Source: an uncultured Gammaproteobacteria bacterium (GTDB lineage: Bacteria; Patescibacteriota; Microgenomatia; Levybacterales; UBA12049). From it: DNA of 64,000 nt. Position numbers and translations under genes: made by a program. The notes beneath the pieces were generated by a model. That model ran no database searches and was not told the origin of the DNA. It was given only the letters and a program-made list of their open reading frames with translations. The DNA is taken from positions 498,361-562,360 of the forward strand of contig CAZAZU010000001.1 of assembly GCA_964490105.1 (NCBI GenBank). Direction: 5' to 3'. Positions 2 through 64,000 of the stretch are shown piece by piece (position 1 is the stretch's first letter; each line of letters opens with the position of its first letter).

Positions 2-490
2 GTTGCAGATTTTTATAAATCTAACTCACCCAGAATCCTAAAGTACTTACTCAAACATCTACCGAGTAAGGAAGATGCTGAGGATTTAACTAATGATGTC
101 TTTTTCGAAGCAATTGATTCCTTAAATCTCCTAACAAAAGAGGATAATCTACAGGCTTGGCTTTATAAAATCGCACATAATAAAATGGTCGATTATTATA
201 GAAAAAGAAAAATTAAATCTCTTCTTCTGTCTCAGATTCCATATTTAGAAATAATCGATAAAGAAGTTCATCAGCCGGAATTTCAATTCGAGAAAGACAG
301 AGTTCGAGATAAGATTGAAAAGACTTTAATAAGCCTTTCTGAAAAATATCAAAAAGTATTAAGACTTCATTACGAAGAAGGATTTTCAGTAAAAGAAATT
401 GCCGTAAGACTTAATATGTCTTTTAAAGCTACGGAATCGCTTTTATTTAGAGCAAGAAAACAATTCCAACTAGCATATGAATCCCGCTAA
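2..490 (+). CDS. ECF-type RNA polymerase sigma-70 factor, 5'-truncated at window edge
   Basis: The frame is open from nt 2. Region 2-like segment 'DLTNDVFFEAIDSL...QAWLYKIAHNKMVDYYRKRK' is followed by a region 4 HTH 'SVKEIAVRLNMSFKATESLLFRARKQF'. The last codons and the stop lie inside MITE copy A. Confidence 0.8.
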   Translation, partial: VADFYKSNSPRILKYLLKHLPSKEDAEDLTNDVFFEAIDSLNLLTKEDNLQAWLYKIAHNKMVDYYRKRKIKSLLLSQIPYLEIIDKEVHQPEFQFEKDRVRDKIEKTLISLSEKYQKVLRLHYEEGFSVKEIAVRLNMSFKATESLLFRARKQFQLAYESR

Positions 491-565
491 AAGCCGCGAT
501 CGCTTTTAAAAATTGGGGTCAGAGAAAGGAAAGGCAGGTGATCGCGATCTGCTTTTAAACGGGAT
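481..565 (+). mobile_element. MITE-like palindromic repeat, copy A (about 85 bp, imperfect terminal inverted repeats containing GCGATCGC)
   Basis: Sequence 'atcccgctaaaagccgcgatcgcttttaa...gatcgcgatctgcttttaaacgggat' is near-identical to 46873-46959 and to the reverse complement of 39396-39478. The ends are inverted repeats of each other. Confidence 0.6.
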
Positions 566-791
566 GAACGAAAATGAATTTATTTTAAAACTCCAGGAAA
601 GAGCTCGCACTCAAGAAAAAATTGTTAAAGATATGCCATTTTCAAATATTTTTTCGACCGTTAGTCTTTGGCTGGGACGTCATCCATATAGAATTCTGGT
701 GCCAATCGCATTCATACTGACTTTACTTTTTAGAGGTGTTTTAGGCCCAAAATACACTGACTTTGTGCTTTATATATTTAGAACAATATGA
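513..791 (+). CDS. hypothetical membrane protein (possible anti-sigma factor by position only)
   Basis: ORF directly follows the ECF sigma gene and has one predicted TM segment 'ILVPIAFILTLLF'. The first 17 codons lie inside MITE copy A, so the true start is probably the ATG at 564 supplied by the repeat terminus (MNENEF...). Confidence 0.3.
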   Translation: MGSEKGKAGDRDLLLNGMNENEFILKLQERARTQEKIVKDMPFSNIFSTVSLWLGRHPYRILVPIAFILTLLFRGVLGPKYTDFVLYIFRTI

Positions 792-1470: not shown

Positions 1471-1806
1471 ATGGAAATATTAAAAAATTATGGACTTTCC
1501 ATTGCTTTATTTCTTTTATTTGCAGGCTCATGGGGAGGACAGGCTTACTTTCAGTGGAATGAATTTACCTCCACCCAACAGGAACATAATGCGGAAATAA
1601 ATGTAAAAGATTTTTCAAATGAATTCCTATCAGCAACATTTGAAAATTGGCAGTCAGAATTCCTGCAACTATTTTCTTTTGTAGTACTAGCTACATACCT
1701 AATTCATAAAGGAAGTCCTCAATCAAAAGATGGAGATGATGAAATAAGAATAATGTTAAAAGACATTCAAAAGAAACTTGACACTACGAAGAAGAGAAAA
1801 CACTAA
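1471..1806 (+). CDS. hypothetical small membrane protein
   Basis: Internal Met (MEILKNYGLSIALFLLFAGSW...) of the 1411..1806 ORF. It has one N-terminal TM and a second hydrophobic stretch, and is convergent with gltX with overlapping stops. Confidence 0.35.
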   Translation: MEILKNYGLSIALFLLFAGSWGGQAYFQWNEFTSTQQEHNAEINVKDFSNEFLSATFENWQSEFLQLFSFVVLATYLIHKGSPQSKDGDDEIRIMLKDIQKKLDTTKKRKH

Positions 1807-3194
1807 ACTCTTTTTTTAAGATTTTCTATTATTTGATCACGGCCTTCTATTTTTACCATTGTCTCGATTAGCGGCAAACCTTGTTCTTTTCCTGTAATCA
1901 AAAAATAGATTATTTTCATGGAAACATTTTCCTGATCTCTAAAATTCTTAAGATGATTTAAGATTATGTCCTCTCTCCAGTCGGTGTGATTTATTTTTTC
2001 TAAAACTCCTAAAAGCTTTTTGCCGGATTCTTTTTCTTCGGACGTAAATTCTCTTTGTTTTTGTGGAGCATTAACTAAATTTCTAAATTCGGAAAGTTTT
2101 TTCATCCTGCTCTGAGCTAGGCCAATTAGTAAATCTACATGCTTACTATCAAACATTGCACTAAATTCCTTGTCATTTCTATAAAACTTTTCTAAGCGTT
2201 TTTTGAGCTCTAAGGAATCCATATTTCTAATCCACTGACCATTTATCCATTCTAATTTTGCGAGATCAAAAATAGGCCCGACAGGTTTTAAGTCTTTTGG
2301 ATCAAAAAGACTTATAAATTCCTGGATATCAAATACTTCTTTCTGCTCTGGATGACTCCAACCCATTAGAGCCAGGAAATTTAATATCGCTTCCGGTAAA
2401 AATCCCTCATCTTTATACCAATCTACGCTTGCATGTCCATGTCTTTTAGATAATTTAGACTTATCAGGATTTCTTAAAACCGGGGTATGATAAAACTTCG
2501 GCTTTTCCCAACCAAAATATTCATAAAGTAAAATATGCTTTGGAAGACTCGAAAGCCATTCTTCCCCTCTTACTACATCTGTAATCTCCATTAGATGGTC
2601 ATCAATAATTACAGCGAAGTGATATGTAGGAAATCCATCAGACTTCACAAGAACCGTATCTTCAATTAGACTAGAATCAAATTCTACATCTCCTCGAATT
2701 TCATCCCGTCCTACAAGTTTTGTATTTTCTGGAATTCTAAGGCGAAGAACGTGCGGCTCTGAAAGCCTCTCCTTTGATTCTTCAATTTTTAAACCTCTGC
2801 AATGACCATCATACATTGTGGGCTGATGACTTGCAGTTTGGGTTGCCCTTAAAGCATCTAGTCTTTCTTTTGTACAAAAACAATAATAAGCGCCGTTTTT
2901 TTCAACTAAATCCAATGCATATTTGGCATAAATCTCAAGCCTTTCAGATTGACGATACGGCCCAAAGTCCCCGCCTTTTCTCACACTTTCATCCTCAATT
3001 AGTGAAAACCAGTCAATTGCTTCAAAAATTTTATCCTCTGATCCTTCTACAAAACGAGCTCTATCTGTATCTTCAATTCTTACTAAAAACTTTCCTTTAT
3101 TTCTCCTGGCATATGCATAATCAAATAAGGCCTGATAAACAGTCCCTATATGCGGAAACCCGGTTGGACTTGGTGCAACTCTAGTTCTAGTCAT
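1803..3194 (-). CDS. gltX: glutamate--tRNA ligase
   Basis: Class I HIGH motif 'PSPTGFPHIGT' and KMSKS-type 'KLSKRHG'. 463 aa. TATAAT lies 6 nt upstream of the ATG. Confidence 0.9.
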   Translation of the reverse strand: MTRTRVAPSPTGFPHIGTVYQALFDYAYARRNKGKFLVRIEDTDRARFVEGSEDKIFEAIDWFSLIEDESVRKGGDFGPYRQSERLEIYAKYALDLVEKNGAYYCFCTKERLDALRATQTASHQPTMYDGHCRGLKIEESKERLSEPHVLRLRIPENTKLVGRDEIRGDVEFDSSLIEDTVLVKSDGFPTYHFAVIIDDHLMEITDVVRGEEWLSSLPKHILLYEYFGWEKPKFYHTPVLRNPDKSKLSKRHGHASVDWYKDEGFLPEAILNFLALMGWSHPEQKEVFDIQEFISLFDPKDLKPVGPIFDLAKLEWINGQWIRNMDSLELKKRLEKFYRNDKEFSAMFDSKHVDLLIGLAQSRMKKLSEFRNLVNAPQKQREFTSEEKESGKKLLGVLEKINHTDWREDIILNHLKNFRDQENVSMKIIYFLITGKEQGLPLIETMVKIEGRDQIIENLKKRV

Positions 3195-10125: not shown

Positions 10126-11487
10126 ATGAAAGATTTGATTCCGCCAAGTGTCTTAAAAATCCATGACAGTCTTGAAAAAAACAATTTTGAAGCATATTTT
10201 GTAGGTGGATCTGTAAGAAACATTATTCTTAATTTACCCGTAAAAGATTGGGATCTTACGACCAATGCAACACCCGAAGAAATTCTCAAACTTTTTCCAG
10301 ATGGATATTATAATAATGAATTCGGAACTGTTGGGGTTCCATTAAATGACCAAACAGTTGTAGAAATAACAACTTATAGAACCGAGCAGGGTTTTTCAAA
10401 CAAAAGACATCCCGATAAAGTCGCTTGGGGAAAAACAATTGAAGAAGATTTAAGCAGACGCGATTTTACAATTAATGCTATTGCACTTCGTTTTCCTAAG
10501 GATAAACAGTCAGATCCAGAATTTATTGATCCATATGACGGAAAGACGGATATTAAAAATAAAATCATTAGAACTGTTGGTGCGCCCTCGGAACGATTCA
10601 AAGAAGACGCGCTAAGACTGTTAAGAGCGATTAGGTTTGCAACAGTCCTTTCATTTGACATAGATGCCGAAACAGGAAAAGAACTTGTCGAAGATGCACC
10701 GCTTATCCAACAAATTTCCTTTGAAAGAATTAGAGACGAATTATTAAAAATTTTAGCAAGTGAAAATCCATCTAAGGGGGTTTTACTTTTAAAGGATGCA
10801 GGACTTTTGAGGTTTATAATTCCAGAGCTTTTGGAGGGAGTAAATGTTTCTCAAGTTCGTCCTGGACGTCATCACACTACAGATGTTTTTACACATAATA
10901 TTTTGTCACTTAAGTTCTGCCCATCCACTGATCCTATCGTTAGATTTGCGACATTAATTCACGATGTCGGAAAACCAAAAGTAAAAGGTGAAGATAAAGA
11001 CGGATTAGTTACTTTTTATAATCACGAAGTAGCTGGCGCAAAAATTGCTTACGATATTTGTGAAAGATTAAAATTTTCCAAGATTGACCGGAATAGAGTG
11101 ATTAATCTAATAAGATGGCACATGTTTTCTGTGGATGACAAAATAACTGATGCTGCAGTCAGAAGATTTATTAGAAGAATTGGTGTAGAAAATGTTAAAG
11201 ATTTAATAGATTTAAGAATTGGCGATAGATTAGGAAGCGGAACTGAAACAGCTGAAAGCTGGCGCCTTAAATTATTTAAAGACAGGATAGAAAAAGAGCT
11301 TGCGCCTGCTGCATTCTCAATAAATGATTTAAAAATAGACGGAAACGATGTAATGAAAATCTTAAACATTAAACCAGGTAAGGAAATTGGAGAAATTTTA
11401 GAAAAATTATTTGAAGAAACGGATGAAGATCAATCAAAAAACACTAAAGAGTATTTAACTAAAAGAGTGAAAGAAATCGCTGCATGA
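10126..11487 (+). CDS. cca: CCA-adding tRNA nucleotidyltransferase with HD domain
   Basis: Pol-beta head 'YFVGGSVRNIIL...DWDLTT' and 'RRDFTINAIA'. C-terminal HD motif 'HTTDVFTH...LIHDVGKP'. Confidence 0.85.
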   Translation: MKDLIPPSVLKIHDSLEKNNFEAYFVGGSVRNIILNLPVKDWDLTTNATPEEILKLFPDGYYNNEFGTVGVPLNDQTVVEITTYRTEQGFSNKRHPDKVAWGKTIEEDLSRRDFTINAIALRFPKDKQSDPEFIDPYDGKTDIKNKIIRTVGAPSERFKEDALRLLRAIRFATVLSFDIDAETGKELVEDAPLIQQISFERIRDELLKILASENPSKGVLLLKDAGLLRFIIPELLEGVNVSQVRPGRHHTTDVFTHNILSLKFCPSTDPIVRFATLIHDVGKPKVKGEDKDGLVTFYNHEVAGAKIAYDICERLKFSKIDRNRVINLIRWHMFSVDDKITDAAVRRFIRRIGVENVKDLIDLRIGDRLGSGTETAESWRLKLFKDRIEKELAPAAFSINDLKIDGNDVMKILNIKPGKEIGEILEKLFEETDEDQSKNTKEYLTKRVKEIAA

Positions 11488-11517
11488 TATATCGATATAT
11501 CGATATATCGATATATA
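11485..11517. repeat. tandem palindromic repeat (ATATCGAT)x3
   Basis: Sequence 'tgatatatcgatatatcgatatatcgatatataa' sits immediately after the cca stop. ATATCGATAT is a perfect palindrome. The same repeat occurs at 41717-41743. Confidence 0.7.
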
Positions 11518-11580
11518 ATTCAACTTCGCCTCTTTTTTTATATTTTTTGCTACAAATATTTAATATGGTATTATCTATTC

Positions 11581-12498: not shown

Positions 12499-13280
12499 GC
12501 TTACGTAGGATTTATGCTATGAATAAAAGGTATTTTTATACCCTAGTTCATAGTTACGACAGATTATCTGACATGTTTTATTGGCCAATTATGGACATCC
12601 TTATCTGGGGATTAACCGGAATTTATTTCGCAAAACTTAGCACCAATCCAGAAGAAACCACTACAGTTCTATTAACTGGATTAATATTTTGGATAATTAC
12701 CTGGAGAACCCAATATGAAGTAACGGTAAATTTACTTACAGAAATGTGGGATAAAAATTTAGTAAATCTTTTTTCTTCCCCTCTTAAAATGTCTGAATGG
12801 ATCTCCTCAGTAATGATCTATGGGGGAATAAAAATGCTGGCAAGCCTTATATTTTCTGCATCAATTGCCTTCCTTCTTTATAGTTATGATTTCTTTCAAT
12901 TTGGCTGGTGGATAATTCCATTCGCAATTAATCTTTGTATAACAGGATGGGCGATTGGATTTACCGTAGCATCTTTAATTATTAGGTACGGACAAAAGGT
13001 TCAAACTATGGCGTGGACTGGCGCATATATCATAGTTCCTTTTTCAGCTATCTATTATCCAGCAGCTATTCTTCCAGACTGGGCAATCAAAGTTTCTAAG
13101 ATAATTCCGGCTAGTTATGTTTTTGAAGCGATGAGGGAACATATTAAATCTGGAAATGTAAGCCTAGACAAACTGGCGATAAGCTTTGCATTAAGCATTA
13201 CTTATTTGCTATTATCAATCATGCTGTTTACTTGGGCATTTAGAAAAAGTAAACAAAAAGGACTTGGAAGATTAATTTAA
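12495..13280 (+). CDS. ABC-2 family transporter permease
   Basis: Translationally coupled to the ATPase with a 4-bp overlap. Six hydrophobic segments. Confidence 0.7.
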   Translation: MSLRRIYAMNKRYFYTLVHSYDRLSDMFYWPIMDILIWGLTGIYFAKLSTNPEETTTVLLTGLIFWIITWRTQYEVTVNLLTEMWDKNLVNLFSSPLKMSEWISSVMIYGGIKMLASLIFSASIAFLLYSYDFFQFGWWIIPFAINLCITGWAIGFTVASLIIRYGQKVQTMAWTGAYIIVPFSAIYYPAAILPDWAIKVSKIIPASYVFEAMREHIKSGNVSLDKLAISFALSITYLLLSIMLFTWAFRKSKQKGLGRLI

Positions 13281-13729
13281 TGGATAAAGCAAAACTACAA
13301 CAAGAATTAATTGCAGCAATGAAAGCGCAAGATGAGACCAAAAAGTCTACTGTTCGCATGCTTATTTCCTCTATCAACTACTATCAAATCGAAAAAGGCG
13401 GAGCAGGATATGAGGCAACTCCTGAAGATGTTTTAGCAGTTATCGAAAAAGAAGCTAAAAAAAGACGCGATTCAATCTCAGAGTATCAAAAAGCTGGAAG
13501 ACAAGATTTGGCTGATAAAGAAACCGAAGAGTTAAAGATTCTAGAAGCCTATCTTCCTGAAAAAATGTCAGAAGCAGAAGTTACTAAAATAGTTGAGGAA
13601 ACAATTTCAGAAACTGGCGCTTCGTCAATGGCCGACATGGGAAAACTTATGGGAGCTTTAAATGGAAAACTTAAAGGAAAAGCAGATATGGGAATGGTCT
13701 CAAACTTAGTTCGCTCAAAACTTTCCTAA
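13280..13729 (+). CDS. GatB/YqeY domain protein
   Basis: 149-aa acidic helical protein 'KAKLQQELIAAMKAQDETKKSTVRMLISSINYYQIEKGG...' typical of the YqeY family. Confidence 0.75.
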   Translation: MDKAKLQQELIAAMKAQDETKKSTVRMLISSINYYQIEKGGAGYEATPEDVLAVIEKEAKKRRDSISEYQKAGRQDLADKETEELKILEAYLPEKMSEAEVTKIVEETISETGASSMADMGKLMGALNGKLKGKADMGMVSNLVRSKLS

Positions 13730-34930: not shown

Positions 34931-36079
34931 TTAGGGTATATGCCAATAAAGACTAACTGTTCCATTCTTGTGATCCACTATTATTCCTTTTCCAAGTGAT
35001 CCGTTATAACTGCAAGTCGCGCTTGTCGCATATGCTTCTCCTGATTCCATGGCCCTAATAGGTGTTCCAAACGGATTTGCCAAATCAAGCCCTGTGTGGG
35101 TTCCAAGAAAATAAACTTCTCCATACCATGTGGTAACATTTCCGGGATAGCCGGGAACAGGCTGCTGATACGCTGAATTCTCCATGTATGGTTTTGGATC
35201 CACTCTATTTCCAATTACTCTATTATTCTGAACACTAGCGTTAACATAAACCTCGAAGTGTAGATGCGGTCCGGTAGAGCATCCGCTTGATCCAACTCCT
35301 GCAATTATATCTCCTTTATTTACCGGGCCAATTTTTGCATTAATATTTCCTAAGGCAATATTAATAGAAGCAGCATCTGCTTTAAGGCGAGCTAAAAGCT
35401 CCTGGAATTTGGCTTCATCATTTTTAGTTACAGCTAAAAGCTGCTCTTTCTGTGCCTTCTCAGTATCAAGTTGAGTTTGATAGCTAACAAGCTCTGCATT
35501 TAGCTGTTCAATTTTTGCTTTTTTATCTTCAAAAATATCTTTCTGATTAGAGTAATCATTCCTTGCTTGGACAGTATCATAAATTAATCTTTTATCATGA
35601 GCTTGGGCTATTCTTAAGTAATTAGCTTTTTTAACAAAGTCTTCAACATTTGAGGAAGTTAATAACATTTGAAATTGGGACGTGCTTCCGACTATGTAAG
35701 TTTCTTTAATCCTATTTATTAGTATTTCTGACAAACTATCCAGGGAATCTTCAAGTTTTACAATTTTCTTATCGGCTGTATCTATATCCAAAGTAAGATC
35801 TGAAATCTGAGCACGAGCTGAGTCAATCTTAAGCTGAGTTAATTTTATTTGATTATCAATAACGCCGATTTGAGAAGAAAGTGTTTTCTCCTCACCTTGA
35901 AGCTGGGAAATTTTTGCCTGCGTCTCATCAATTTGCCTTAAGATTTCAGCTTGGTTTTTTGATTGACCGGAAGTGGGAGTAGGGGTCTGCGCAATTGCAG
36001 TAATTCTGAAAACAAAACCAAGGGAAACAAAAATAAAGATGGCTAAAATTAAGTATGGTAATAACGTTTTGAATTTCAT
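34931..36079 (-). CDS. coiled-coil M23 (LytM) family peptidase, EnvC/PcsB-like partner of FtsEX; M23 motifs in permuted order
   Basis: N-terminal TM plus about 230 aa of coiled coil. The catalytic motifs occur in the order HxH 'GCSTGPHLHFEV', then HxxxD 'HTGLDLANPFGTPIRA', then 'GIIVDHKNGTVSLYWHI'. The ORF stops 4 aa after the last motif. Confidence 0.7.
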   Translation of the reverse strand: MKFKTLLPYLILAIFIFVSLGFVFRITAIAQTPTPTSGQSKNQAEILRQIDETQAKISQLQGEEKTLSSQIGVIDNQIKLTQLKIDSARAQISDLTLDIDTADKKIVKLEDSLDSLSEILINRIKETYIVGSTSQFQMLLTSSNVEDFVKKANYLRIAQAHDKRLIYDTVQARNDYSNQKDIFEDKKAKIEQLNAELVSYQTQLDTEKAQKEQLLAVTKNDEAKFQELLARLKADAASINIALGNINAKIGPVNKGDIIAGVGSSGCSTGPHLHFEVYVNASVQNNRVIGNRVDPKPYMENSAYQQPVPGYPGNVTTWYGEVYFLGTHTGLDLANPFGTPIRAMESGEAYATSATCSYNGSLGKGIIVDHKNGTVSLYWHIP

Positions 36080-38391: not shown

Positions 38392-39396
38392 TTACAAACT
38401 GCGGAGTTCTGCTTCAATAAATTTATCAATATTTCCGTCCAAAACTCCCTGCGTATCCGAAGTTTCATAGAGAGTTCTAAGATCTTTTACCATTTTATAT
38501 GGATGCAAAACATAACTTCTAATTTGATTCCCCCAGCCCGGTGTTTTATATCCGCCTTTTAAGGCTGCTTCATTTTTCTTTCTTTCTTCTTCCTGCAAAA
38601 ACCATAGCTTTCCAACAAGAAGCTTCATCGCATATTCTCTATTTTTACCCTGATATCTTTCTGAATGAGCAGTTACTACTAGTCCCGTGGGCTTATGCTT
38701 AAGACGAACCGCAGTACTGACCTTATTTACATTTTGCCCACCGTGTCCACCTGATCTATAAAAATCCCATTCAACATCTTCTTCTTTTATTTGAATCGCT
38801 CCAGCATCTTCAATTTGAGGAATAACCTCTACCAGAGCAAACGAGGTTTGACGAAGGTTGTCTGCGTTAAATGGAGACTGCCTAACCAATCTGTGTACAC
38901 CTGCCTCAAGCTTTAAAAGACCATATGCAAATTGTCCATCTACTAAAAAAGTTATACTTTTAAGCCCTGCTTCTTCCCCTGGAGTCTCATCAATTGTTTC
39001 AAGTGAAAATCCCTTGAGCTCTGCATACCGTGAGTACATTCTATAAAGCATTTGCGTCCAGTCCATTGCTTCAACTCCACCCTGACCAGCATGGATTGAA
39101 ACAATTGCCGGAGATTTATCAAAATCACCTGAAAAATAAAGTAAATGCTCAAGTTCTCCTAAAACCACCTCTAGTTCATCAAATTTTTCCTGCCTAAGTA
39201 ACTCCATAATTTGTCTTGCAGATTCTATTTCTTTCTGAAGACTTGCCATTTCCTTCATTTTTTCAGTGGCTCTTTGAGGATCTTTCCAGAAATCTGGCAT
39301 CATAGATTCACCTTCTATATGCTTAATGGCTATTTCTTTTTCAGTTAAGTTAATTTTTTGAAGAACTTTTTCTGCTCTCCCTTTAATTTCATCCAT
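38392..39396 (-). CDS. prfB: peptide chain release factor 2, no programmed frameshift
   Basis: RF2-specific 'SPF', 'GGQNVNK' and the C-terminal GGQ domain. The ORF is contiguous. The called ATG is the terminal ATG of MITE copy B. An internal Met start cannot be excluded. Confidence 0.8.
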
Positions 39397-39478
39397 CCCG
39401 TTAGAAGCAGATCGCGATCATCTGCTATCCTTTCATTTTTTTCAAACCCTTAAAAGCGATCGCGGCTTCTAACGGGAT
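39396..39478 (-). mobile_element. MITE-like palindromic repeat, copy B (reverse orientation)
   Basis: The reverse complement matches copies A and C: 'atcccgttagaagccgcgatcgcttttaa...gatgatcgcgatctgcttctaacgggat'. Confidence 0.6.
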
Positions 39479-39483
39479 CCATA

Positions 39484-39909
39484 TTAAATTTCTGAGCAGA
39501 GCTTCATGCACATACTTTTTGCTTCGTTGCTTGGAAGATCCTTGAGTCCTTCCATATCTTTTAAAACTTTTTGGATTTGAGGAGATGATGACGCAACTTC
39601 CACAGGATCTAAACCTTCAATATTCTTTTTTAGTTCTTCTATCTTAGATCCAACTTCATTTGCGACATTAAATCTTGGAATTTCAACGTCAGGTTTTTTA
39701 ATTGGCGTAGGAGAAACGGATACATTTTGACCTAAAACTTCATCGTTATTTGAAAAAAATGTGGTCTTAATTTCTCTAACTGCTAAGATCGCAACCACCA
39801 CAAAAAAAGCTGTTACTATTACTCTTTTTTTATCCCATTCCTCGCCAGATTCTTCTTTTCTTCTAGTCTTTACAGGTTCAACTGCTTCTTCTTTTTTTCT
39901 GAAAAACAT
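39484..39909 (-). CDS. hypothetical membrane-anchored protein
   Basis: Charged N-terminus and one TM 'VIVTAFFVVVAILAV'. 141 aa. Confidence 0.4.
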   Translation of the reverse strand: MFFRKKEEAVEPVKTRRKEESGEEWDKKRVIVTAFFVVVAILAVREIKTTFFSNNDEVLGQNVSVSPTPIKKPDVEIPRFNVANEVGSKIEELKKNIEGLDPVEVASSSPQIQKVLKDMEGLKDLPSNEAKSMCMKLCSEI

Positions 39910-41708: not shown

Positions 41709-41716
41709 ATTTACTG

Positions 41717-41743
41717 TCTGATATATCGATATATCGATATATA
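41717..41743. repeat. tandem palindromic repeat (ATATCGAT)x2, second locus
   Basis: Sequence 'tctgatatatcgatatatcgatatataatg' lies between the aldolase stop and the rpiB ATG. It ends in TATATAAT 8 nt upstream of the rpiB start. Confidence 0.7.
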
Positions 41744-41753
41744 ATGTATTGAT

Positions 41754-46095: not shown

Positions 46096-46872
46096 TTGAT
46101 GGATTTATTTCAAACTTTAATTCTTTCTTTCGTAGAAGGTGTTACGGAATTTTTACCAATTTCTTCAACGGGGCACCTAATCCTTGCTTCTCAAATTCTT
46201 GGGATCAAACAAACTGAATTTGTAAAAAGTTTTGAAATTATTATTCAATTAGGCGCTATTCTTTCAATAGTTTTCCTATACTTTAAAACTTTATTAAATT
46301 TTAAGATCTGGCCCAAAATTTTCGTAGCTTTTCTTCCAAGCGCGGTCGTAGGCCTACTCTTCTATAAAATTATTAAAGAATTTCTAATTGGAAATAGCCT
46401 TATAACTGTAATCGCATTACTAATTGGAGGAATCGCATTTATAGCAGTCGAATACTGGAATAGGGATAAGCAATCAAAGCAAACTTCTAAGATCGAGGAG
46501 ATTACTTTTAAGAACGCATTTATAATAGGACTTTTCCAGTCAATTTCTGTGATTCCTGGCGTTTCAAGAGCTGGAGCTACAATTCTGGGGGCTTTACTAC
46601 TTAAAACAAACAGAAAAACAGCCGCAGAGTTTTCATTCATTCTGGCTGTTCCTACGATGGCAGCAGCCACTGGATTAGATGTATTTCAAACCAAATTGAA
46701 CTTTTCAAATAATGAATTGTTTTTGCTCGCTGTAGGCTTCGTGAGTTCATTCATTTTTGCTGCTATTTCAGTAAAATTACTTGTAAAATACCTGGCTAAT
46801 CATAACTTTATTTCCTTTGGAATCTATAGAATTGCGTTAGCGATAATATTTTGGTTAATATACCTGAGATGA
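46096..46872 (+). CDS. uppP: undecaprenyl-diphosphatase
   Basis: 'VTEFLPISSTGHLIL' and about 8 TM segments. TATAAT lies 8 nt upstream. The stop codon abuts MITE copy C. Confidence 0.85.
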   Translation: MMDLFQTLILSFVEGVTEFLPISSTGHLILASQILGIKQTEFVKSFEIIIQLGAILSIVFLYFKTLLNFKIWPKIFVAFLPSAVVGLLFYKIIKEFLIGNSLITVIALLIGGIAFIAVEYWNRDKQSKQTSKIEEITFKNAFIIGLFQSISVIPGVSRAGATILGALLLKTNRKTAAEFSFILAVPTMAAATGLDVFQTKLNFSNNELFLLAVGFVSSFIFAAISVKLLVKYLANHNFISFGIYRIALAIIFWLIYLR

Positions 46873-46959
46873 ATCCCGTTAGAAGCCGCGATCGCTTTTA
46901 GGGATTTGAAGCAAAAAGAAAGGATAAGTAGATGATCGCGATCTGCTTCTAAACGGGAT
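46873..46959 (+). mobile_element. MITE-like palindromic repeat, copy C
   Basis: Sequence 'atcccgttagaagccgcgatcgcttttag...gatgatcgcgatctgcttctaaacgggat'. Its terminal ATG is the start codon of the MGMT gene. Confidence 0.6.
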
Positions 46960-47260
46960 GAACACGTTTGAAAAGGTTTATAAGGCTGTAGCTAAAATTC
47001 CAAGAGGAAAAGTTACTACTTATGGTGAAATTGCGCGGTACTTAGGCATCTCTAACCCAAGAGTGGTAGGATTTGCACTTCACGTAAATAAGGACCCGGA
47101 TAATATCCCTTGCCACAGAGTGGTAAATAAAAAAGGAGAACTTGCTCCAGGCTACGCTTTTGGAGGTCTTGATGTCCAAAAACAGCTGCTAACACAAGAG
47201 GGGGTTAAATTTGAAAATTCGAGAGTAAAACTTGAAAGCTCAGGTTTTAATTTTACTTAG
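46958..47260 (+). CDS. methylated-DNA--protein-cysteine methyltransferase (stand-alone MGMT C-terminal domain)
   Basis: Active-site 'IPCHRVVN' (PCHR) and HTH 'TYGEIARYLGISNPRVVG'. 100 aa. Confidence 0.75.
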   Translation: MNTFEKVYKAVAKIPRGKVTTYGEIARYLGISNPRVVGFALHVNKDPDNIPCHRVVNKKGELAPGYAFGGLDVQKQLLTQEGVKFENSRVKLESSGFNFT

Positions 47261-54841: not shown

Positions 54842-57800
54842 ATGGCAGCTCAAAGAATTGAAAGCACAGGATCACATCCAGAAGCAGATAATCTTCCAAA
54901 TAATGGGTCTCATCTGCAGATTGATCGTGGATTAACTCAACTTGAATTAGGCTTATCAACAGCCCCTGTTCTCGGAGAAAATGGAACCCCAGGAGCAGAA
55001 GATGAAAGAATTAATAGTGGAAAGCGAGAAGAAGTATTACAAGCCTTTGCGCGCCAATTCGAAGCATTTAGAGAGGCTCCTGATACTGTCCTGGAAGACT
55101 GGGAAGCAGCAGAAAGAGGCGAAATGGCTGAAATATTGGACACGGGAAAGGTTGATTTCGCAAATGGAGTAGATTCTTTCAGAGAAAACGGACGCACAAG
55201 AAGACTTCCTATCCAGGCTTTTATGAACTTCGTTGCTGTTAAGGCTGATGAGGATGAGCAAGTTGAAAATGATAGAAGAATTCTTGAAAAATATAGCAGG
55301 TCTCCTATCTCAACTATCAGAGGAGATGGCCAGATCAGCAGACAAACACACAGGCAGTTAGCTGATGAAGCAGCCCAAGCAACCCAGGACAGAAGAAGCG
55401 CAGTAAGAAGAGCCCAAACAGGAGTGCGCTGGTTCTATCCGCCTAAAAATGCAGACATAAACAACACCACTCCTGAAGCTTCGCAACCGCAAGATTTATC
55501 GGGTGCAATGCAAATCTTTGAAGAAGCTCTTCGGAGATATAGACATGCCAACAGTCCGATTGATAAAAAAACGGCAAAAAGAGAACTTGATTTAATCACC
55601 AGGCAAATGGGAGATTTAACAGGGGACACGGCTGCTGTAAAAGAATTCCTAGAGGCGAGAAGAGAAGAAGCACGAAAATCAGGAAAAGCGGATCGAGGAA
55701 CGGCATCCAAACTGGAAATACGAGCATCAAAGTTAAGAATAGAACGAGCAGCAGACAGATTATATGAATTGGAAGATTTAAGAAGTAATGAACCAATTAT
55801 TCTGGGGAATTCACCAAGCTCGGATATATCAGATCGCGGCTCTGACCTTCCAAGCGAAACTGCTGAAGAAATTATAACCACTCCTTGGCTTACTTCAATG
55901 ATTGAAACTCAAGTAAGACAGGATGATGCTCCTTGGGGTAAACCTAAACTACCTGGTAATGTGACAGTAACCACAGAGAATGCTCTCGAAAAAATTAAAA
56001 CTCCACTTAGGCTTTCTGGAGGCTTAAATCCTGGAGAAAAAAAGGGCTATAGCCAACCTCAAGCTTCTCAAATTATTAGAAAAGCTGGAGAAGAACTATA
56101 TCGTAGTTATAAAAAGACATGGGATGAAGTATCGAAATTGAGAGCAGATAGCGATTCTAAGGTTACATCAAAGTCTGATCCTATTACTTCTTCAGCGCAC
56201 GATTTTACACCACCATCTTATACTTCTGTAGATTGGTCTAAAACAGATAATGCGAGAGAGGTATGGGAGGCTCAATTCAGAGAGGCAGTAAAAGCAGAGG
56301 AAAAACTACCTGCGCTACCTATACCCATAAGCGCTGCTGATCAACTTCAAGCTGATGAAGACGCAGAAAGAGCCAGAAAAACTGCGGAAGACGATAAAAG
56401 ACGCGCCGCAAGAACAGCTATTGATGACGCTAGACGTTTAGGACAACCGATTCCAGAAGTAGATGAAAAGGGGTTTTTGGTTGACCCTACCTTAAAACCT
56501 GATGAAGATTTATTTCCTGAGCATGATTACACCCCTCCACCTCCATATGTATCCATTGATTGGTCTCAGACAGAAAAGGAAAGACAAAACTGGGAATTTA
56601 AATTTCAATTATTAAATGACATTGCTAGCTGGGATCAAGGAGATATAGGAAGTGAAGATAGTGGAATTCCCCCCGTCGAAACCGTTCCTCCAGTTGCAGA
56701 AAAAGAGAACGTAAAGTTTAATATTATATTTACATCGCTTGACCCAGCATATGATCAAGAAGCAGAAAAATGGGCAGAACAAAAACTTCAACAAGAACTA
56801 ACTCCAACTAAAGGCAGACTAGGAAAAATTAGAAGTATAAGAAGAGTTGCAGCGACCAGAATCACAGAAGAAGGTAAAAGACTAAAATATACTAAAGCAT
56901 ATAAAGAGACTTTGGTAAAAGCAGGTAATCCATATGCGCAAATCGATATAAAAACAGGAGAAGTAACAGATGCAGATCAGGATAGAGACAAATTTGATGC
57001 ATCAGTTCAGGCCACACTTAGAGGACTTGACATAAACCCAGAGCAGTTCGTTGCAAGAAAAGCAACTATCGATGAAAAATTACAAGAAAAGATTAGTTTC
57101 GAACTATATGGATATGCGGCTGGAAAATTAAGCCCAGCGGAAATTGAGGAAAGATTTGCGAGATTCACTAAAGCTAATTCTGTGGACTTAAGAAAATATT
57201 TCGGAAAGGATTTAGATTCTAGTGATTTTATGGCTGGATTTAATTCAAATTTGATTCAAAAACTTGGAGAAATTAGAGAAGCGATTGATCATGGAGTAAT
57301 AACCCTTGATCAAGTGGACTTTAACGTAGGATTTGCAATTCCAAGATGGGGGACAGAAACTCAGGCAGAACTTACCAGAAGAGATAAATTAATAAAAGGC
57401 GCACAAAAAAGAAGGAAAACTGGAGTTTTAGCGAATCCGCTGGTCTTAGGAGGAGGAGCATCGATAGGAACTAGTTTGGCTTGGGGAGCTGCTGGCTGGG
57501 GAGCTAGATCTGTAGCGCCAGTTGTAGGAATTCTACCTGGAGCATTAATCGGAGGATGGAACGCAAAAGCCAGAAGAAGCTATGATCTAAAAAGAGACAG
57601 AGCAACTTTTGAAAAGGATCAAGCATCAGGAGTTAAGGTTACATCTGATCAACCAAGAAGATTAGCATTGGACAGTTTTTCGAGAAGAAAGACTTCGACT
57701 AGACAGCTTAATTATGGAGTAAGCAACTTAATCAGCCGTGATTTATCAAACAATCCATTTTTATCAGATAAAAGAAAAGAACAAAACGAAAAAGCCCTAC

Positions 57801-59710
57801 AAGCATTAATTAGCAGAATTGCTGAAATAGACGTTAGAAGAAAATTAGGAATTAGCGAGCAAACAGATCATGTAATGTACTCTTCAGAAAAAGTAATCCA
57901 GCAGGAAAAACTTGCACTTGAAGAACTAAGACTAAAAGCCATTGAAGCTGTCAGGTTTTCAGGTATAAGTCATGAAGACTATCAAAGAATCTTAGGTGAA
58001 AAAACAAGAAAATGGGAAAACTTTTTAGCTCGAACTAGTAAGGCACAGGATAAAAAGTTTGATAAATATAGAACTCGTGAAAGCAGAAAAGCATTCGTGG
58101 AAGGAGCTGTTAAGGGAGCAGTTGGAGCAGGTGTAATAGCAGCCGGAACTACTGGAATCAGAATGGCATCTGATGCACTGGGAATCGATGTAGTTGGAGG
58201 AGTAAGAAATATAATTGATGAAAGAATTAGATATATAAGAGGAGAGATAAATGAACTTTCAAGCAAACCACAAGGAGTTCCAAACGAACAACCAGTTAAA
58301 TTAGCAATGGATGGCCACTATTCCAACGGACATCAAGTTTTTGACTCAATGCTAAATATTGATTCAGCAACTGCGACTGATACTGAAGTTGCGGTTTTCG
58401 CACAAGAAGCTCCATTAAATTTTTATGATACAAAATTAGATGGCAAAACAATTAGTATTCCAGAACACACTAGATTAGTCATGGACAGAATTAACGGTGG
58501 GTATGATTTAGTTTCAAGTCGTGATGGCACAACAGTTCTACTTGATGACGTCCGTTGGGAAGAAGGAAAACTAGTTGCTAATCCAAATAGTCTTTGGGCC
58601 GATAAAATCACAGCTGAAACCTCTACAACGCCTGATATGAGAAGAGTTTTGGGAAAAAATGGAGTTTGGAAAGAAATGGCCACGCCGATTAAAGATATTG
58701 ATTGGGATCCGAATGGAACTCCTGGAAAATATGATAAAGATGAATTAGGAATATTTAACAAACGCGATGGAGACGCAGTGGTATTTAGAATTCCTAGTTC
58801 CTCAAATGGATTTTTCTTAAATATAAACGGCGATAGAGTTTGGCTACCAGAAACTAGAGATGGAATCGTAAGGCTTGATCCTGATTCTAAAAAACTCATC
58901 CCTGGAAGACATGACGGAATGACTTATGGAGATGTTGCAAGAATAGCAATTGATCAGGAGGAGCTTAGAAAATATCACGGAAGTCTTCAAACTGAAGTTC
59001 ATACCGAGAGAAGAGAAATATTTAGAGTTGACGCTATCGAAGCGGGAACATTTAGAAATGGTAGAGCTACAATCCATGCAACCATTTTAGGATGTGGTGA
59101 AACTCCAAAAGAAATTAAAATGGGAACAGTTACAAATAGTGTTACTAAAATATTAGCAGGTGAACTTCCCGAACCAGTAGAACCAATTGATCCAACTCCT
59201 GGGCCTACTCAAACATCAAACCCAACAACTACTCCGACTGCTTCACCAGAACCGACAAAATCACCCTGGATAACGCCAAGAACTACTCCGGAGCCAACTC
59301 CTGACCCAACACCAAGGCCTGCTCCTACACCTGAACCAGCTATTCCTACTGGAAGCGGGTTTACATTTGAATGGCCAGACCTAAGTAATATCAACATCCC
59401 GCCAACCATAGCAACTCCAATGGCTAGAAGATATCCATTAGAAAGTGTTTATGCAGCTACAACAAGACCAACTCCAATTTATCCTGCTGTTTTACCGCCT
59501 ACTACTCCGCCATTAGCGTCGACTCCACATGCTAGCCCGAGATTTATGGCTAGAAGATATGGCGATCAGATGAGTCGCGGACTAACAGATGAGGAAAAAG
59601 GGAAAATTGCACTTTATGCTAATGAGGGGAATTCAGATCAAGAAATTGCGAATAAGCTTAATATTCCGCTAAGTCAAGTTCGGCATGTTAGATACGGAAG
59701 AAATAATTAA
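54842..59710 (+). CDS. giant (1622 aa) GC-rich protein with internal repeats, Gly-rich TM segments, Pro/Thr linker and C-terminal LuxR/GerE-type HTH
   Basis: The ORF is continuous with about 45-50 percent GC. Evidence from the sequence:
- Repeats 'DFTPPSYTSVDWSKT...' and 'DYTPPPPYVSIDWSQT...'.
- Gly-rich hydrophobic 'LANPLVLGGGASIGTSLAWGAAGWGA' and 'GAVKGAVGAGVIAAGTTG'.
- Linker 'PTPGPTQTSNPTTTPTASPEPTKSP...'.
- C-terminal 'LTDEEKGKIALYANEGNSDQEIANKLNIPLSQVRHV'.
- TTGCTA-17nt-TATAAT sits 11 nt upstream of the ATG. Confidence 0.6.
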   Translation: MAAQRIESTGSHPEADNLPNNGSHLQIDRGLTQLELGLSTAPVLGENGTPGAEDERINSGKREEVLQAFARQFEAFREAPDTVLEDWEAAERGEMAEILDTGKVDFANGVDSFRENGRTRRLPIQAFMNFVAVKADEDEQVENDRRILEKYSRSPISTIRGDGQISRQTHRQLADEAAQATQDRRSAVRRAQTGVRWFYPPKNADINNTTPEASQPQDLSGAMQIFEEALRRYRHANSPIDKKTAKRELDLITRQMGDLTGDTAAVKEFLEARREEARKSGKADRGTASKLEIRASKLRIERAADRLYELEDLRSNEPIILGNSPSSDISDRGSDLPSETAEEIITTPWLTSMIETQVRQDDAPWGKPKLPGNVTVTTENALEKIKTPLRLSGGLNPGEKKGYSQPQASQIIRKAGEELYRSYKKTWDEVSKLRADSDSKVTSKSDPITSSAHDFTPPSYTSVDWSKTDNAREVWEAQFREAVKAEEKLPALPIPISAADQLQADEDAERARKTAEDDKRRAARTAIDDARRLGQPIPEVDEKGFLVDPTLKPDEDLFPEHDYTPPPPYVSIDWSQTEKERQNWEFKFQLLNDIASWDQGDIGSEDSGIPPVETVPPVAEKENVKFNIIFTSLDPAYDQEAEKWAEQKLQQELTPTKGRLGKIRSIRRVAATRITEEGKRLKYTKAYKETLVKAGNPYAQIDIKTGEVTDADQDRDKFDASVQATLRGLDINPEQFVARKATIDEKLQEKISFELYGYAAGKLSPAEIEERFARFTKANSVDLRKYFGKDLDSSDFMAGFNSNLIQKLGEIREAIDHGVITLDQVDFNVGFAIPRWGTETQAELTRRDKLIKGAQKRRKTGVLANPLVLGGGASIGTSLAWGAAGWGARSVAPVVGILPGALIGGWNAKARRSYDLKRDRATFEKDQASGVKVTSDQPRRLALDSFSRRKTSTRQLNYGVSNLISRDLSNNPFLSDKRKEQNEKALQALISRIAEIDVRRKLGISEQTDHVMYSSEKVIQQEKLALEELRLKAIEAVRFSGISHEDYQRILGEKTRKWENFLARTSKAQDKKFDKYRTRESRKAFVEGAVKGAVGAGVIAAGTTGIRMASDALGIDVVGGVRNIIDERIRYIRGEINELSSKPQGVPNEQPVKLAMDGHYSNGHQVFDSMLNIDSATATDTEVAVFAQEAPLNFYDTKLDGKTISIPEHTRLVMDRINGGYDLVSSRDGTTVLLDDVRWEEGKLVANPNSLWADKITAETSTTPDMRRVLGKNGVWKEMATPIKDIDWDPNGTPGKYDKDELGIFNKRDGDAVVFRIPSSSNGFFLNINGDRVWLPETRDGIVRLDPDSKKLIPGRHDGMTYGDVARIAIDQEELRKYHGSLQTEVHTERREIFRVDAIEAGTFRNGRATIHATILGCGETPKEIKMGTVTNSVTKILAGELPEPVEPIDPTPGPTQTSNPTTTPTASPEPTKSPWITPRTTPEPTPDPTPRPAPTPEPAIPTGSGFTFEWPDLSNINIPPTIATPMARRYPLESVYAATTRPTPIYPAVLPPTTPPLASTPHASPRFMARRYGDQMSRGLTDEEKGKIALYANEGNSDQEIANKLNIPLSQVRHVRYGRNN

Positions 59711-60378
59711 TTATCTTTAATATTTACTTTTGATAATAAAATAATTATCAAATCAATTGCGATTGGAAAAAATAATACCCATATCCCCTTTTTTACTATT
59801 TCCGCAAACTCTTGGGAGTTAAAAAATAAAATAATCGAATCAGGAATCCTCACACCCAAAAAATAACAAACTACAATAACAGTTGCAATTACTGTTAAAA
59901 GAAAAGCTGATCCTTCTAAATCTTTAGAGCTGGAAAACATAGTATTTCCGATTTGAAATACTGCGAAGAATACGAGCACATAATTCCATGGAAAGCCTAT
60001 CATTGATCTGTCTGACAAAAAGTAAAACACAAAAAAAGATATTATTAAAATCCCTACGAAAACCGGTGCGAAGCCAATGATAGCCCGCCTGATAGGATCA
60101 GTTTCTTGAATAGCAACACTTCCCATGATTATCCTATCCCCATCTGGCTCTGGTGTAAAATTTAATCCACTCGTTCTAACCAGCATAGCTTCAGCTACTA
60201 ATAGGTGTGCTAATTCATGAACTATGACTCCGGGAAGAAGAAATAAATGAAAAAGTCTGATTGCTAAACTCTCTCTCCTTGTAACTTTTAAAAATAAGAA
60301 AGAAATTGATCTTATTAACAATTTAGAAAGAAAAAAAAGAAAGATGAATTCTAAAATAAAAATTAAGACGTAAACCAC
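59707..60378 (-). CDS. polytopic membrane protein with HExxH motif (putative intramembrane zinc metalloprotease)
   Basis: 'LLPGVIVHELAHLLVAEAM' sits within a TM region. 223 aa with about 6 TM segments. Confidence 0.4.
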   Translation of the reverse strand: MVYVLIFILEFIFLFFLSKLLIRSISFLFLKVTRRESLAIRLFHLFLLPGVIVHELAHLLVAEAMLVRTSGLNFTPEPDGDRIIMGSVAIQETDPIRRAIIGFAPVFVGILIISFFVFYFLSDRSMIGFPWNYVLVFFAVFQIGNTMFSSSKDLEGSAFLLTVIATVIVVCYFLGVRIPDSIILFFNSQEFAEIVKKGIWVLFFPIAIDLIIILLSKVNIKDN

Positions 60379-60382
60379 ATAT

Positions 60383-61570
60383 TTATCTTAACGTATTTTT
60401 CGAATCTGTGTCAGGAATTTTAAAGTATACCCAAAGAGCAATTGGCATGACAATCAAAATTACCTTGGGATGATATTCATAAACTGGAGAAATTAAAAGA
60501 CTTACAAAAGTAAAAAGGTAAAGATATTCTTGTTTTCCCTTTTCTTTGGCATATAAAAAAATAGAAAGAATTATTGGAATATAAACAGGAAATGTATATC
60601 TAAAAACAGAAACAAAAATATGAAAATAATGATCGCTTGGTAAGAATAAAAAGATAACAAAATTAGATAATCCTATTAATATAAATTTTGTAATTTTACT
60701 AAATTTTCTTTTTTTATAACTTTTGAATAGAATAAAGAATGAAATAAAAATTGAAAAAAACCATATAGAATACTCACCAAATCCAGCGTTAATAAAATTA
60801 ATCGCTCCGCTAAATGAAATAAAGGAAACTTCCCATACCTGAGTGCTTAGTATTTCAAAACCTGATTTTGGAAAAAATAAAAATGACTGCGGATAAAATG
60901 GATTTCCCGTATGGAATAAATTTCGCAAATACCAAAAAAGACCAAATATTAAAAAAGGTAAAAAGAAAAAAGGGAATAATTTAAGATTAAAATTTTTTAA
61001 TATTTTTTTTAAGTAAAAGATTATTAGAATAAAAAAATAAAGCGGGCCGCTGAATTTACTCCCAATCAGCATTCCAGCTGAGGTGCCAATCGCTAAATAA
61101 CGGCTATTTTTCTTTTTCATCCCCTCTAGCAGAAGGAGTGTGAGAGTGAAAAAAACCGCAAGCCAGATATCGATTATCTGCATATTAATCCACCTGAGCA
61201 TAATAGGAAGAGAAGAAATAGCTACGCCAAATACAATCGACAAATTATTCCCCAAGCCTGTTCTTTTACCTAACAAATAACAAATTACAAACAAAAAGAT
61301 AACTCCAATTACATTAAGTAACTGGATTGGAATTTTAAATAAAAGAAGTACCGCGATTAACCCCTCCGAAGCACCTGGAGAATATTTCATAAAAGAAATC
61401 CCATCTATTTTTTCAGGATTAAAAATATTTCCATTTAGAAAAGATTTGGCTATGGGAATATGATAATTAAGACTATCTCCATCAGGTGTAATATTTGTAA
61501 AAGCTAAAAAGGTAAAATAGGTGATTAAATATATGAAGAAAATAAAAATTATTTTTGTGAATTTTTTCAT
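60383..61570 (-). CDS. polytopic membrane protein (about 11 TM), possible GT-C-like glycosyltransferase or polymerase/ligase
   Basis: Very hydrophobic 395-aa ORF next to a GT2 gene. No diagnostic motif. Confidence 0.35.
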   Translation of the reverse strand: MKKFTKIIFIFFIYLITYFTFLAFTNITPDGDSLNYHIPIAKSFLNGNIFNPEKIDGISFMKYSPGASEGLIAVLLLFKIPIQLLNVIGVIFLFVICYLLGKRTGLGNNLSIVFGVAISSLPIMLRWINMQIIDIWLAVFFTLTLLLLEGMKKKNSRYLAIGTSAGMLIGSKFSGPLYFFILIIFYLKKILKNFNLKLFPFFFLPFLIFGLFWYLRNLFHTGNPFYPQSFLFFPKSGFEILSTQVWEVSFISFSGAINFINAGFGEYSIWFFSIFISFFILFKSYKKRKFSKITKFILIGLSNFVIFLFLPSDHYFHIFVSVFRYTFPVYIPIILSIFLYAKEKGKQEYLYLFTFVSLLISPVYEYHPKVILIVMPIALWVYFKIPDTDSKNTLR

Positions 61571-61619
61571 ACATTAAATACGTTCATTGTGGCAATGTTA
61601 ATCAAAACTTAAAGTTATC

Positions 61620-62330: not shown

Positions 62331-62333
62331 TCT

Positions 62334-63791: not shown

Positions 63792-64000
63792 AGATACTTT
63801 ATGATATCAAATTTCAGAAATATTTAACGAAGAATTTATTTCTTTTTATTTATGAGGAATAAAAGCGATATTAGAAGAGCAAATCCGCTAACTGACAAGA
63901 GCATGAATAAATTAAAATTTCCAGAATTAAATATAGCATCTCTATATTCTTTAAAAAGTAAAAGAAGTGAAAAAGCTAAAACCAAAACTAAAAATGAAAC

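Follow-up and report, generated by a model that had tools for sequence, protein, structure and literature searches.

A probable miniature transposable element family that duplicates ATGAA or ATGGA at gene starts in Levybacteria

Background

Bacteria of the Candidate Phyla Radiation (CPR) carry genomes of less than 1 Mb in which intergenic DNA is nearly absent, and to our knowledge mobile elements have rarely been described in them. The locus considered here raises the question of how a short repeat comes to lie, three times over, exactly on a start codon in such a genome. The window, by which we mean the whole 64-kb stretch of DNA that was analysed, comprises positions 498,361 to 562,360 of contig CAZAZU010000001.1 (assembly GCA_964490105.1, forward strand), and coordinates below are those of the window. 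A sequence-only reading had described an element of about 85 bp within it and had proposed that this element is a mobile MITE (a miniature transposable element with inverted repeats). That proposal is upheld by duplications checked against empty alleles, by a conserved hairpin fold and by copies at other sites in other genomes. The full explanation that we favour, with a probability of roughly 0.8, is a Levybacteria MITE family with an ATGRA (ATGAA or ATGGA) target duplication, a transposase acting in trans, selection on the insertions and a putative translational relay.

Results and discussion

Anatomy of the element in the window

Analysis of the window located three copies, each within 1-5 nt of where the sequence-only reading had placed it, with cores of 81-84 nt. 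Copy A (core 482-563, plus strand, 82 nt, TCCCG...CGGG) is composed of a left arm, a purine-rich loop and a right arm, and stands between a gene for an ECF sigma factor and a gene of 75 aa. Copy B (core 39477-39397, minus strand, 81 nt) stands between a 141-aa gene and prfB, the gene for release factor 2 (RF2), while copy C (core 46874-46957, plus strand, 84 nt) stands between uppP and an MGMT-type gene. Each core is flanked by a directly repeated pentamer, the right-hand unit of which forms the first 5 nt of the downstream gene. The repeat is ATGAA at 477-481 and 564-568 (plus strand) for copy A, ATGGA at 39482-39478 and 39396-39392 (minus strand) for copy B, and ATGAA at 46869-46873 and 46958-46962 (plus strand) for copy C. 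The earlier remark that the copies abut gene boundaries can be sharpened accordingly, as all three lie exactly on the start codon of the downstream gene. On the left, the pentamer of copy A now opens a 10-codon decoy open reading frame (ORF), that of copy B begins 1 nt past the TAA stop (39484-39486) of the 141-aa gene, and that of copy C contains the uppP stop TGA (46870-46872), where the original arrangement was an ATGA stop/start overlap.

ATG(A/G)A had been taken for the terminus of the inverted repeat; it is instead a direct repeat, the target-site duplication that flanks the element. The inverted repeat proper reads (A)TCCCGTTAGAAGC / GCTTCTA(A)ACGGGA(T), with the arm sequence TCCCGTTAGAAGCCGCGATC on one side and its reverse complement on the other, and it includes a perfect 14-nt terminal inverted repeat (ATCCCGTTAGAAGC / GCTTCTAACGGGAT). 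The octamer GCGATCGC occurs 3 times in the window against 0.2 expected, each time within a copy, and the 12-nt arm, with up to 2 mismatches, is matched 10 times against 2.3 expected, a number reached by none of 100 shuffles. A profile built from the known copies scored the three window copies at E = 6e-23 to 5e-27 and found no further diverged copy in the window.

The hairpin, which the sequence-only reading had suggested folding, proved to be conserved. Folded copy by copy, the element gives minimum free energies of -30 to -37 kcal/mol (z = -2.9 to -5.5), and 24 base pairs are conserved over 8 distinct copies, in which the arms of about 25 nt are nearly invariant and the loop is variable and purine-rich. 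One compensatory pair was observed, a G-C to A-U change on both sides in copy A. The coding capacity of the element is limited to ORFs of 6 and 10 codons, with no transposase ORF.

Filled and empty alleles

The strongest evidence for mobility came from comparing occupied sites with their unoccupied counterparts in related genomes (loci fetched for this purpose carry L numbers). In all five site comparisons the filled allele differs from the empty one by exactly the core and one extra ATGRA, and it is with this pentamer that the downstream gene begins. The RF2 start is filled in the window and in L010/L026/L027 and empty in L013-L020, whose RF2 proteins are 90% (L017), 88% (L013-L016) and 78% (L018-L020) identical to that of the window. 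The empty site of L017 reads tttaat followed directly by ATGGATGAA, and the window reads tttaatATGGA, the core and then ATGGATGAA. Some RF2 homologues have N-terminal extensions; these read upstream-gene sequence and not the element, and represent further empty sites. The junction of uppP and the MGMT-type gene is empty in L015, L018 and L026, and L015 and L018 keep the ATGA stop/start overlap (...g followed by ATGAATACA). The junction of the sigma and 75-aa genes is empty in L021-L025, with a single ATGGA or ATGAA, and the sigma ORF there, ending in ..SYGRI, shares 14 nt with the next gene. The remaining two comparisons concern sites that are filled elsewhere: L002 carries the element at the start of the MVD gene, where L021 and L025 are empty, and the start of the YqeY gene is filled in L003/L005, the window's own ATGGA at 13280-13284 (plus strand) being the unoccupied target at the orthologous site.

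A 5-bp ATGAA or ATGGA duplication is present in 6 of the 8 copies. Both flanks covary from copy to copy (ATGAA/ATGAA three times, ATGGA/ATGGA three times, TCAAA/TCAAA once), as a duplication made by a staggered cut would predict and a fixed end of the element would not. The target-site duplication that the sequence-only reading had proposed to look for was thus found as a 5-bp repeat and checked against empty alleles. Together these observations make it very likely, more so than the full explanation given above, that the element is a non-autonomous DNA transposon of the MITE type with target-site duplication.

Two copies depart from this pattern and weigh against it. The insertion in L001 lies upstream of an ATGGAT start, at a distance of 5 nt, and however its ends are parsed the TCAAA duplication is one base out. 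The L009 copy has no duplication, a different loop and no motif of the Shine-Dalgarno (SD) kind described below. This variant (L009:3611-3705) combines the same arms with an unrelated AT-rich loop and lies between two ORFs in the same frame, of which only the downstream one resembles other glycosyltransferases by eye. Recombination between copies could have produced this variant, or it could belong to a second subfamily.

Effects on the flanking genes

The consequences of insertion are most readily followed at copy A. The 3' part of the sigma-factor gene (185-490, plus strand) ends within the element: its last two codons and stop (TCC CGC TAA, 482-490) lie in the left arm, as had been noticed from the sequence, and the change amounts to the last two residues and the stop only. 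The observed tail is ..AYESR, and removal of the insert in silico gives ..AYERK. The sigma homologue in L021 contains Sigma70_r2 and Sigma70_r4 domains.

Downstream, the gene of 75 aa has its true start at 564 (564-791, plus strand). The sequence-only reading was correct in assigning the start of the protein to this ATG; the idea that the element supplies it did not hold, as the insertion regenerated this ATG from the gene's own start. A mechanical ORF call of 92 aa (513-791) adds 17 codons ahead of ATG 564 by beginning at a TTG within the element, and those codons are indeed element sequence, as had been stated. All 16 homologues measure 75-77 aa, and the upstream codons are therefore a gene-calling artefact produced by a frame that stays open through the right arm.

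Why start codons

On both strands of the window there are 483 ATGRA sites, of which 29 are called gene starts, 14 are fully intergenic and 440 lie inside genes. The pentamer is the commonest gene beginning in the window, 29 of 66 ORFs starting with ATGAA or ATGGA. If the three insertions had been picked at random among all ATGRA sites, finding all three at starts would have a probability of ~2e-4. Among the sites that spare genes, the probability is (29/43)^3 = 0.31, so that no special targeting of starts is needed, a point on the negative side for the favoured explanation. Sensing of start codons is not required: a preference for ATGRA combined with purifying selection is sufficient to explain the placement. 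It leaves unexplained the sense orientation of all 8 copies.

The course of events is the following. The element integrates with a 5-bp duplication, preferring ATGAA or ATGGA, so that the start codon is doubled. The left pentamer keeps the stop of the upstream gene, or else the element provides a new stop within 3 codons, and the right pentamer restores the start of the downstream gene. A transposase encoded elsewhere would presumably move the element in trans, and only sense insertions at gene junctions would be expected to survive selection in a genome that is ~95% coding. This last figure is that of the window, in which 30 of the 46 junctions between co-directional genes are overlaps or gaps of no more than 5 nt.

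Distribution, copy number and orientation

The 8 distinct copies come from at least 5 genomes or metagenome contigs. A genome scan, covering one genome per species, detected the element in two metagenome-assembled genomes (MAGs), with 1 and 2 copies, and a metagenome scan detected one copy in a 574-kb contig together with one variant, the other matches being GC-rich chance matches. No copy was found in ~135 kb of loci from the empty-allele relatives (L013-L025), and 21 kb from an RF2-filled genome (L026) contained only the RF2-site copy. The high density that had been inferred from three copies in 64 kb is accordingly true of the window, the densest sample seen and an exceptional one, and does not extend to the family, which elsewhere is low-copy. 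So low a copy number (1-2 per MAG, 1 in 574 kb) counts against the favoured explanation. Copies from different genomes or sites are 75-93% identical, and the L009 variant is 65-72% identical. In the data examined, the family is real, low-copy and confined to Levybacteria-like genomes. All 8 copies are in sense orientation to the genes beside them, and this holds also for the two that ATGRA does not flank, L001 and L009.

Searches outside these genomes and for known relatives gave negative results. Plasmid and phage blastn searches returned chance-level matches only (E >= 0.9), and a scan of viral contigs with a two-box pattern returned zero matches. With Rfam 15, only a tRNA passes the gathering threshold over the whole window, and the best match over the element (400-650, E <= 10) scores 20 bits, where the gathering score is 80 (E = 0.7). 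No avoidance of GATC or of restriction sites was seen. A Pfam scan of 40 window ORFs found no transposase, and no solo arms that could bound a full-length insertion sequence (IS) occur in any fetched locus. In the sequence searched, namely the window and the fetched loci, no transposase with matching ends was found, and this is a further point against the favoured explanation.

Stops, mini-ORFs and a possible translational relay

The element carries stops in all three frames as read from the left. Frame 0 reads ATG RAT CCC GTT AGA AGC CGC GAT CGC TTT TAR. Frame 1 meets TGA at once in ATGAA copies and a stop in the loop in ATGGA copies, and frame 2 reads GAA TCC CGT TAG, whose stop now terminates the sigma gene and, in L001 and L009, the upstream ORFs. 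Frame 0 constitutes a first mini-ORF. In copy A (477-509, plus strand) it is ATG AAT CCC GCT AAA AGC CGC GAT CGC TTT TAA, encoding MNPAKSRDRF, and runs from the left ATG through the left arm to a stop in the loop. It is present in 6 of 8 copies and ends in TAA or TAG in every copy that has the left ATG.

A second mini-ORF follows in the right half and consists of a start codon and ATC GCG ATC TGC TTY TAA (MIAICF and stop), ending 4-5 nt before the gene's ATG. Its start codon is ATG in 6 copies, GTG in copy A and TTG in L009. In copy A it reads GTG ATC GCG ATC TGC TTT TAA (538-558, plus strand) and ends 5 nt before the gene's ATG; in copy B it reads ATG ATC GCG ATC TGC TTC TAA (39401-39421, minus strand) and ends 4 nt before the RF2 ATG; and in copy C it occupies 46932-46952 (plus strand). 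The loop upstream of it contains a purine-rich, SD-like motif: GAAAGGAAAGG at 523-534 (plus strand) in copy A, GAAAGGA at 39434-39428 (minus strand) in copy B and GAAAGGA at 46918-46924 (plus strand) in copy C. The core of this motif, GAA(A)GG, is found in 7 of 8 copies, at 6-7 nt from the internal start in six and at 3 nt in copy A, and is absent from L009. Indels in the loop fall upstream of the module formed by GAA(A)GG and the internal start.

The arrangement suggests a relay. Ribosomes that formerly started the gene would start the 10-codon decoy ORF at the left ATG and would unwind the 5' arm, melting the hairpin; the SD-like GAAAGG and the second mini-ORF, with its ATG, GTG or TTG, would then hand translation on, with re-initiation at the regenerated ATG. 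Read from the sequence in this manner, a translational relay is a tentative proposal. In its favour, the hairpin is predicted to lower the unpaired probability at -18..-1 of the real start from 0.72 to 0.34, from 0.35 to 0.22 and from 0.44 to 0.27, and RF2, with its start next to the hairpin, lacks another start close by. No T-run and no terminator-like site is present in the element. A conserved outward promoter was likewise not found; copy B alone gives a 9/12 match, at chance frequency. The loop of copy B (39417-39445, minus strand) contains a sigma-70-like TTGAAA-17-GATGAT facing RF2, and L010 and L003 carry, by eye, the same TTGAAA/GATGAT hexamers at a spacing of 17-18 nt.

Several points weigh against the relay. 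SD motifs precede 7 of 66 starts in the window, which equals the 12% background, and the SD reading of the loop motif is weak because this genome hardly uses SD motifs. The module of SD motif and ATG could be a remnant of the translation start of a parent transposase. The copies share ancestry, so that their conservation represents few independent observations, and selection on the hairpin itself would be backed by no more than the single compensatory pair.

The most probable rival is a purely passive MITE without any adaptation to gene starts. On this view the mini-ORFs, stops and loop motif would arise incidentally from a GC-rich palindrome placed in AT-rich surroundings, or be left over from a parent IS, and integration chemistry at an asymmetric target would account for the uniform orientation. 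This account comes close to an even chance. It draws on the same ATGRA preference and selection that already predict the start-codon placement and on the background level of SD motifs in the window, and the conservation of the arms is what would be expected of transposase binding sites. Moreover, L009 persists between two genes without the loop motif. It fits less well with L001 (TCAAA) and L009 (no duplication), which are also in sense orientation and show that the orientation bias is not tied to ATGRA. Nor does it readily accommodate the spacing from motif to internal start, kept in 6 of 7 motif-bearing copies while other loop sequence varies, or the fact that RF2 must still be translated from an ATG abutting a hairpin of -37 kcal/mol, prfB having no alternative start nearby. 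At the opposite end, a MITE specialised for ultra-compact genomes, combining start targeting, start regeneration, stops in all frames, a built-in relay and RF2 as a recurrent hot spot, appears doubtful on present evidence.

Repeated occupation of the RF2 start

Both the window and Ga0209726_10000004 carry the element at the RF2 start. The two filled RF2 genes share 77% identity at the protein level and 54% at third codon positions, with flanks at 65-69%, and the two element copies are 93% identical. The nearest relatives of both filled lineages are empty. Two independent hits on this one site, out of several hundred permissible ones, would suggest a hot spot, and targeting or selection would be indicated by such repeated occupation. 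Similarity between copies at unrelated sites is just as high, up to 93%, and the identity of the elements alone consequently does not settle the choice between a hot spot and an old insertion.

An old insertion is the basis of a second rival, in which at least the RF2-site copy has been retained by selection as an exapted cis-regulatory RNA hairpin, which might act as an RNase III processing site or as a translational gate of prfB, and has been lost precisely from the relatives. The occupation of one site in two diverged lineages by copies that are 93% identical is in keeping with this, as is the RF2-site copy being the only match in the 574-kb contig. Short direct repeats flanking hairpins favour precise deletion, which would supply a route for the losses. 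The same degree of similarity at unrelated sites, however, does not single out the RF2 copy, and with all nearer relatives of both lineages empty, many independent precise losses would be needed. No Rfam family matches the hairpin either, and we regard this alternative as unlikely.

Considerably less probable is a third rival, a hairpin of the REPIN or IS200/IS605 type that is moved by a Y1 (RAYT-like) transposase and placed 3' of a pentanucleotide without true duplication. The element is a long hairpin with a specific pentamer at its flank, and a gene encoding a 221-aa Y1_Tnp protein lies 1.6 kb from the copy in L026/L027. That gene has its own inverted 13-mers (GGGGACGGTCCTC), which are unrelated to the element and absent from both window and element. 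The same module seems to be present in L017, where an uncharacterised ORF of 212 aa stands beside one 13-mer, yet the RF2 site of L017 is empty, and the right pentamer changes with the left (ATGAA, ATGGA, TCAAA), which a fixed element end would not do. The Y1_Tnp gene near the L026 copy was rejected as mobiliser, its flanking repeats being unrelated. In its own right, the module (L026:11636-12386, also in L027 and L010 and probably in L017) is RAYT/REP-like, with a Y1_Tnp domain (PF01797) between the inverted 13-mers. A gene for an M23 peptidase of 194 aa has been inserted along with it, immediately downstream of RF2. The module occurs in two non-sister RF2 lineages and is absent from the window.

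Finally, a fixed, non-mobile palindrome common to three operon junctions, such as an operator or attenuator, would agree with the strong dyad symmetry and the position at gene boundaries and is given almost no weight, because empty alleles contradict it: orthologous junctions in close relatives (88-91% protein identity) are precisely without the element, other genomes carry it at different junctions, and target duplications flank it.

Comparison with known repeats

Bacterial MITEs such as Correia/CREE of Neisseria, RUP of Streptococcus pneumoniae and MITEAba12 resemble the element in being shorter than 150 bp and non-coding, in having terminal inverted repeats that fold as a hairpin, in their flanking duplication and dispersed copies, and in their presence/absence polymorphism. 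MITEs are known to insert next to or into gene ends, altering the 3' or 5' termini of ORFs (PMC3184786), and for CREE a target preference that shapes the functional outcome has also been described (PMC9330008). The element differs from the known MITEs in having no sequence similarity to them (Rfam, plasmid and phage searches), in its 5-bp ATGRA duplication rather than TA or 9 bp, in its CPR host and very low copy number, and in its insertion on start codons in sense orientation. A literature search for a MITE described in CPR bacteria found none. We conclude that this is a new MITE family of the ordinary kind with an unusual insertion geometry, sharing the features of MITEs except an identified parent.

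Other small repeats offer partial parallels. Like the REP2 repeats of Neisseria and the Borrelia repeats, the element places an SD-like motif and start codons before genes. REP2, however, measures 120-150 bp, has no terminal inverted repeats, and brings its own promoter and its own ATG, which is fused to ORFs, whereas in the element the gene's ATG is duplicated host sequence and no promoter is conserved. Rickettsia palindromic elements (RPE) are small palindromic mobile repeats that a reduced genome tolerates within its coding regions or at their margins (PMC3184786). RPE are translated in frame within the host protein, and the element, with stops in three frames, is not read into the downstream protein. 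The REP/REPIN and RAYT systems share hairpin repeats with the element, and related genomes contain a RAYT-like gene. That gene is flanked by unrelated repeats and not by the same dispersed REP that such systems have, and the element makes target duplications and is neither extragenic nor high-copy. Palindromes derived from IS200/IS605 have no duplication and a fixed 3' end, while in the element the right flank covaries with the left.

Two further candidates were rejected. Tn3-derived TIMEs have a 5-bp duplication and ends of roughly 38 bp beginning with GGGG; the duplication length fits, but the ends of the element are (T)CCCG...CGGG(A) and not GGGG...CCCC. The likeness of the octamer to HIP1 (GCGATCGC) of cyanobacteria had been noted from the sequence, and the octamer is present in the copies. 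The likeness is coincidental: HIP1 is over-represented throughout cyanobacterial genomes, whereas the octamer here numbers 3 in 64 kb, all in the element, and the host belongs to Levybacteria. The combination of CC ends with a 5-bp duplication might fit an IS1380-like parent IS.

Host genome and other features of the window

The closest named homologues of the flanking genes belong to Candidatus Levybacteria (Microgenomates, CPR), and the RF2 is 88% identical to a Levybacteria-named protein and 100% identical to one encoded on a 784,859-bp contig. The prfB gene (38392-39396, minus strand) contains PCRF and RF-1 domains, with RF2 names among its homologues, and the MGMT-type gene (46958-47260, plus strand) is of the DNA_binding_1 family, Pfam PF01035 having been found on its orthologue. 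Two pairs of loci, L001/L021 (CAYILI01) and L002/L003 (CAZSXQ01), derive from MAGs titled 'uncultured Gammaproteobacteria bacterium'. Their contigs are syntenic with the Levybacteria window, and one of these MAGs encodes a protein 91% identical to the window's; the Gammaproteobacteria labels look wrong. The G+C content of the window is 29-39% per 4-kb window, mostly 33-39%. It drops to 29% at 60001-64000, where several ORFs have no family matches and some others encode glycosyltransferases. An ORF of 1,622 aa (54842-59710, plus strand) has no significant Pfam match.

A TATAAT-like hexamer is present no more than 20 nt upstream of 28 of 66 ORF starts, compared with a background of 10%. Where sequences were inspected by eye, the distance from its end to the ATG is typically 6-9 nt, for example at 1803-3194 (minus strand), 34931-36079 (minus strand), 41754 and 54842. 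This pattern suggests that leaderless mRNAs, or mRNAs with a very short leader, may be widespread in the Levybacteria genome. A second short repeat, CTGnnTGATATATCGATATATCGATATATAAT, is built of tandem ATATCGAT units and occurs at two loci of the window (11480-11522 and 41714-41753). The copy at 41714-41753 has TATAAT as its end, 8 nt ahead of the ATG that opens the gene at 41754, and the repeat may be a shared operator or promoter module.

Conclusions

The element illustrates one way in which a transposon may persist in a CPR genome, by landing where the stop and the start of coupled genes meet and rebuilding the start through its own duplication. Such insertions mislead gene callers, as in the call of 92 aa at 513-791 for a protein of 75 aa, and inflate the apparent intergenic gaps. 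Should the specialised form of the MITE be the true one, insertion within tightly coupled operons would be nearly neutral, and if the relay is real, the element would represent a natural, portable cassette for translational coupling.

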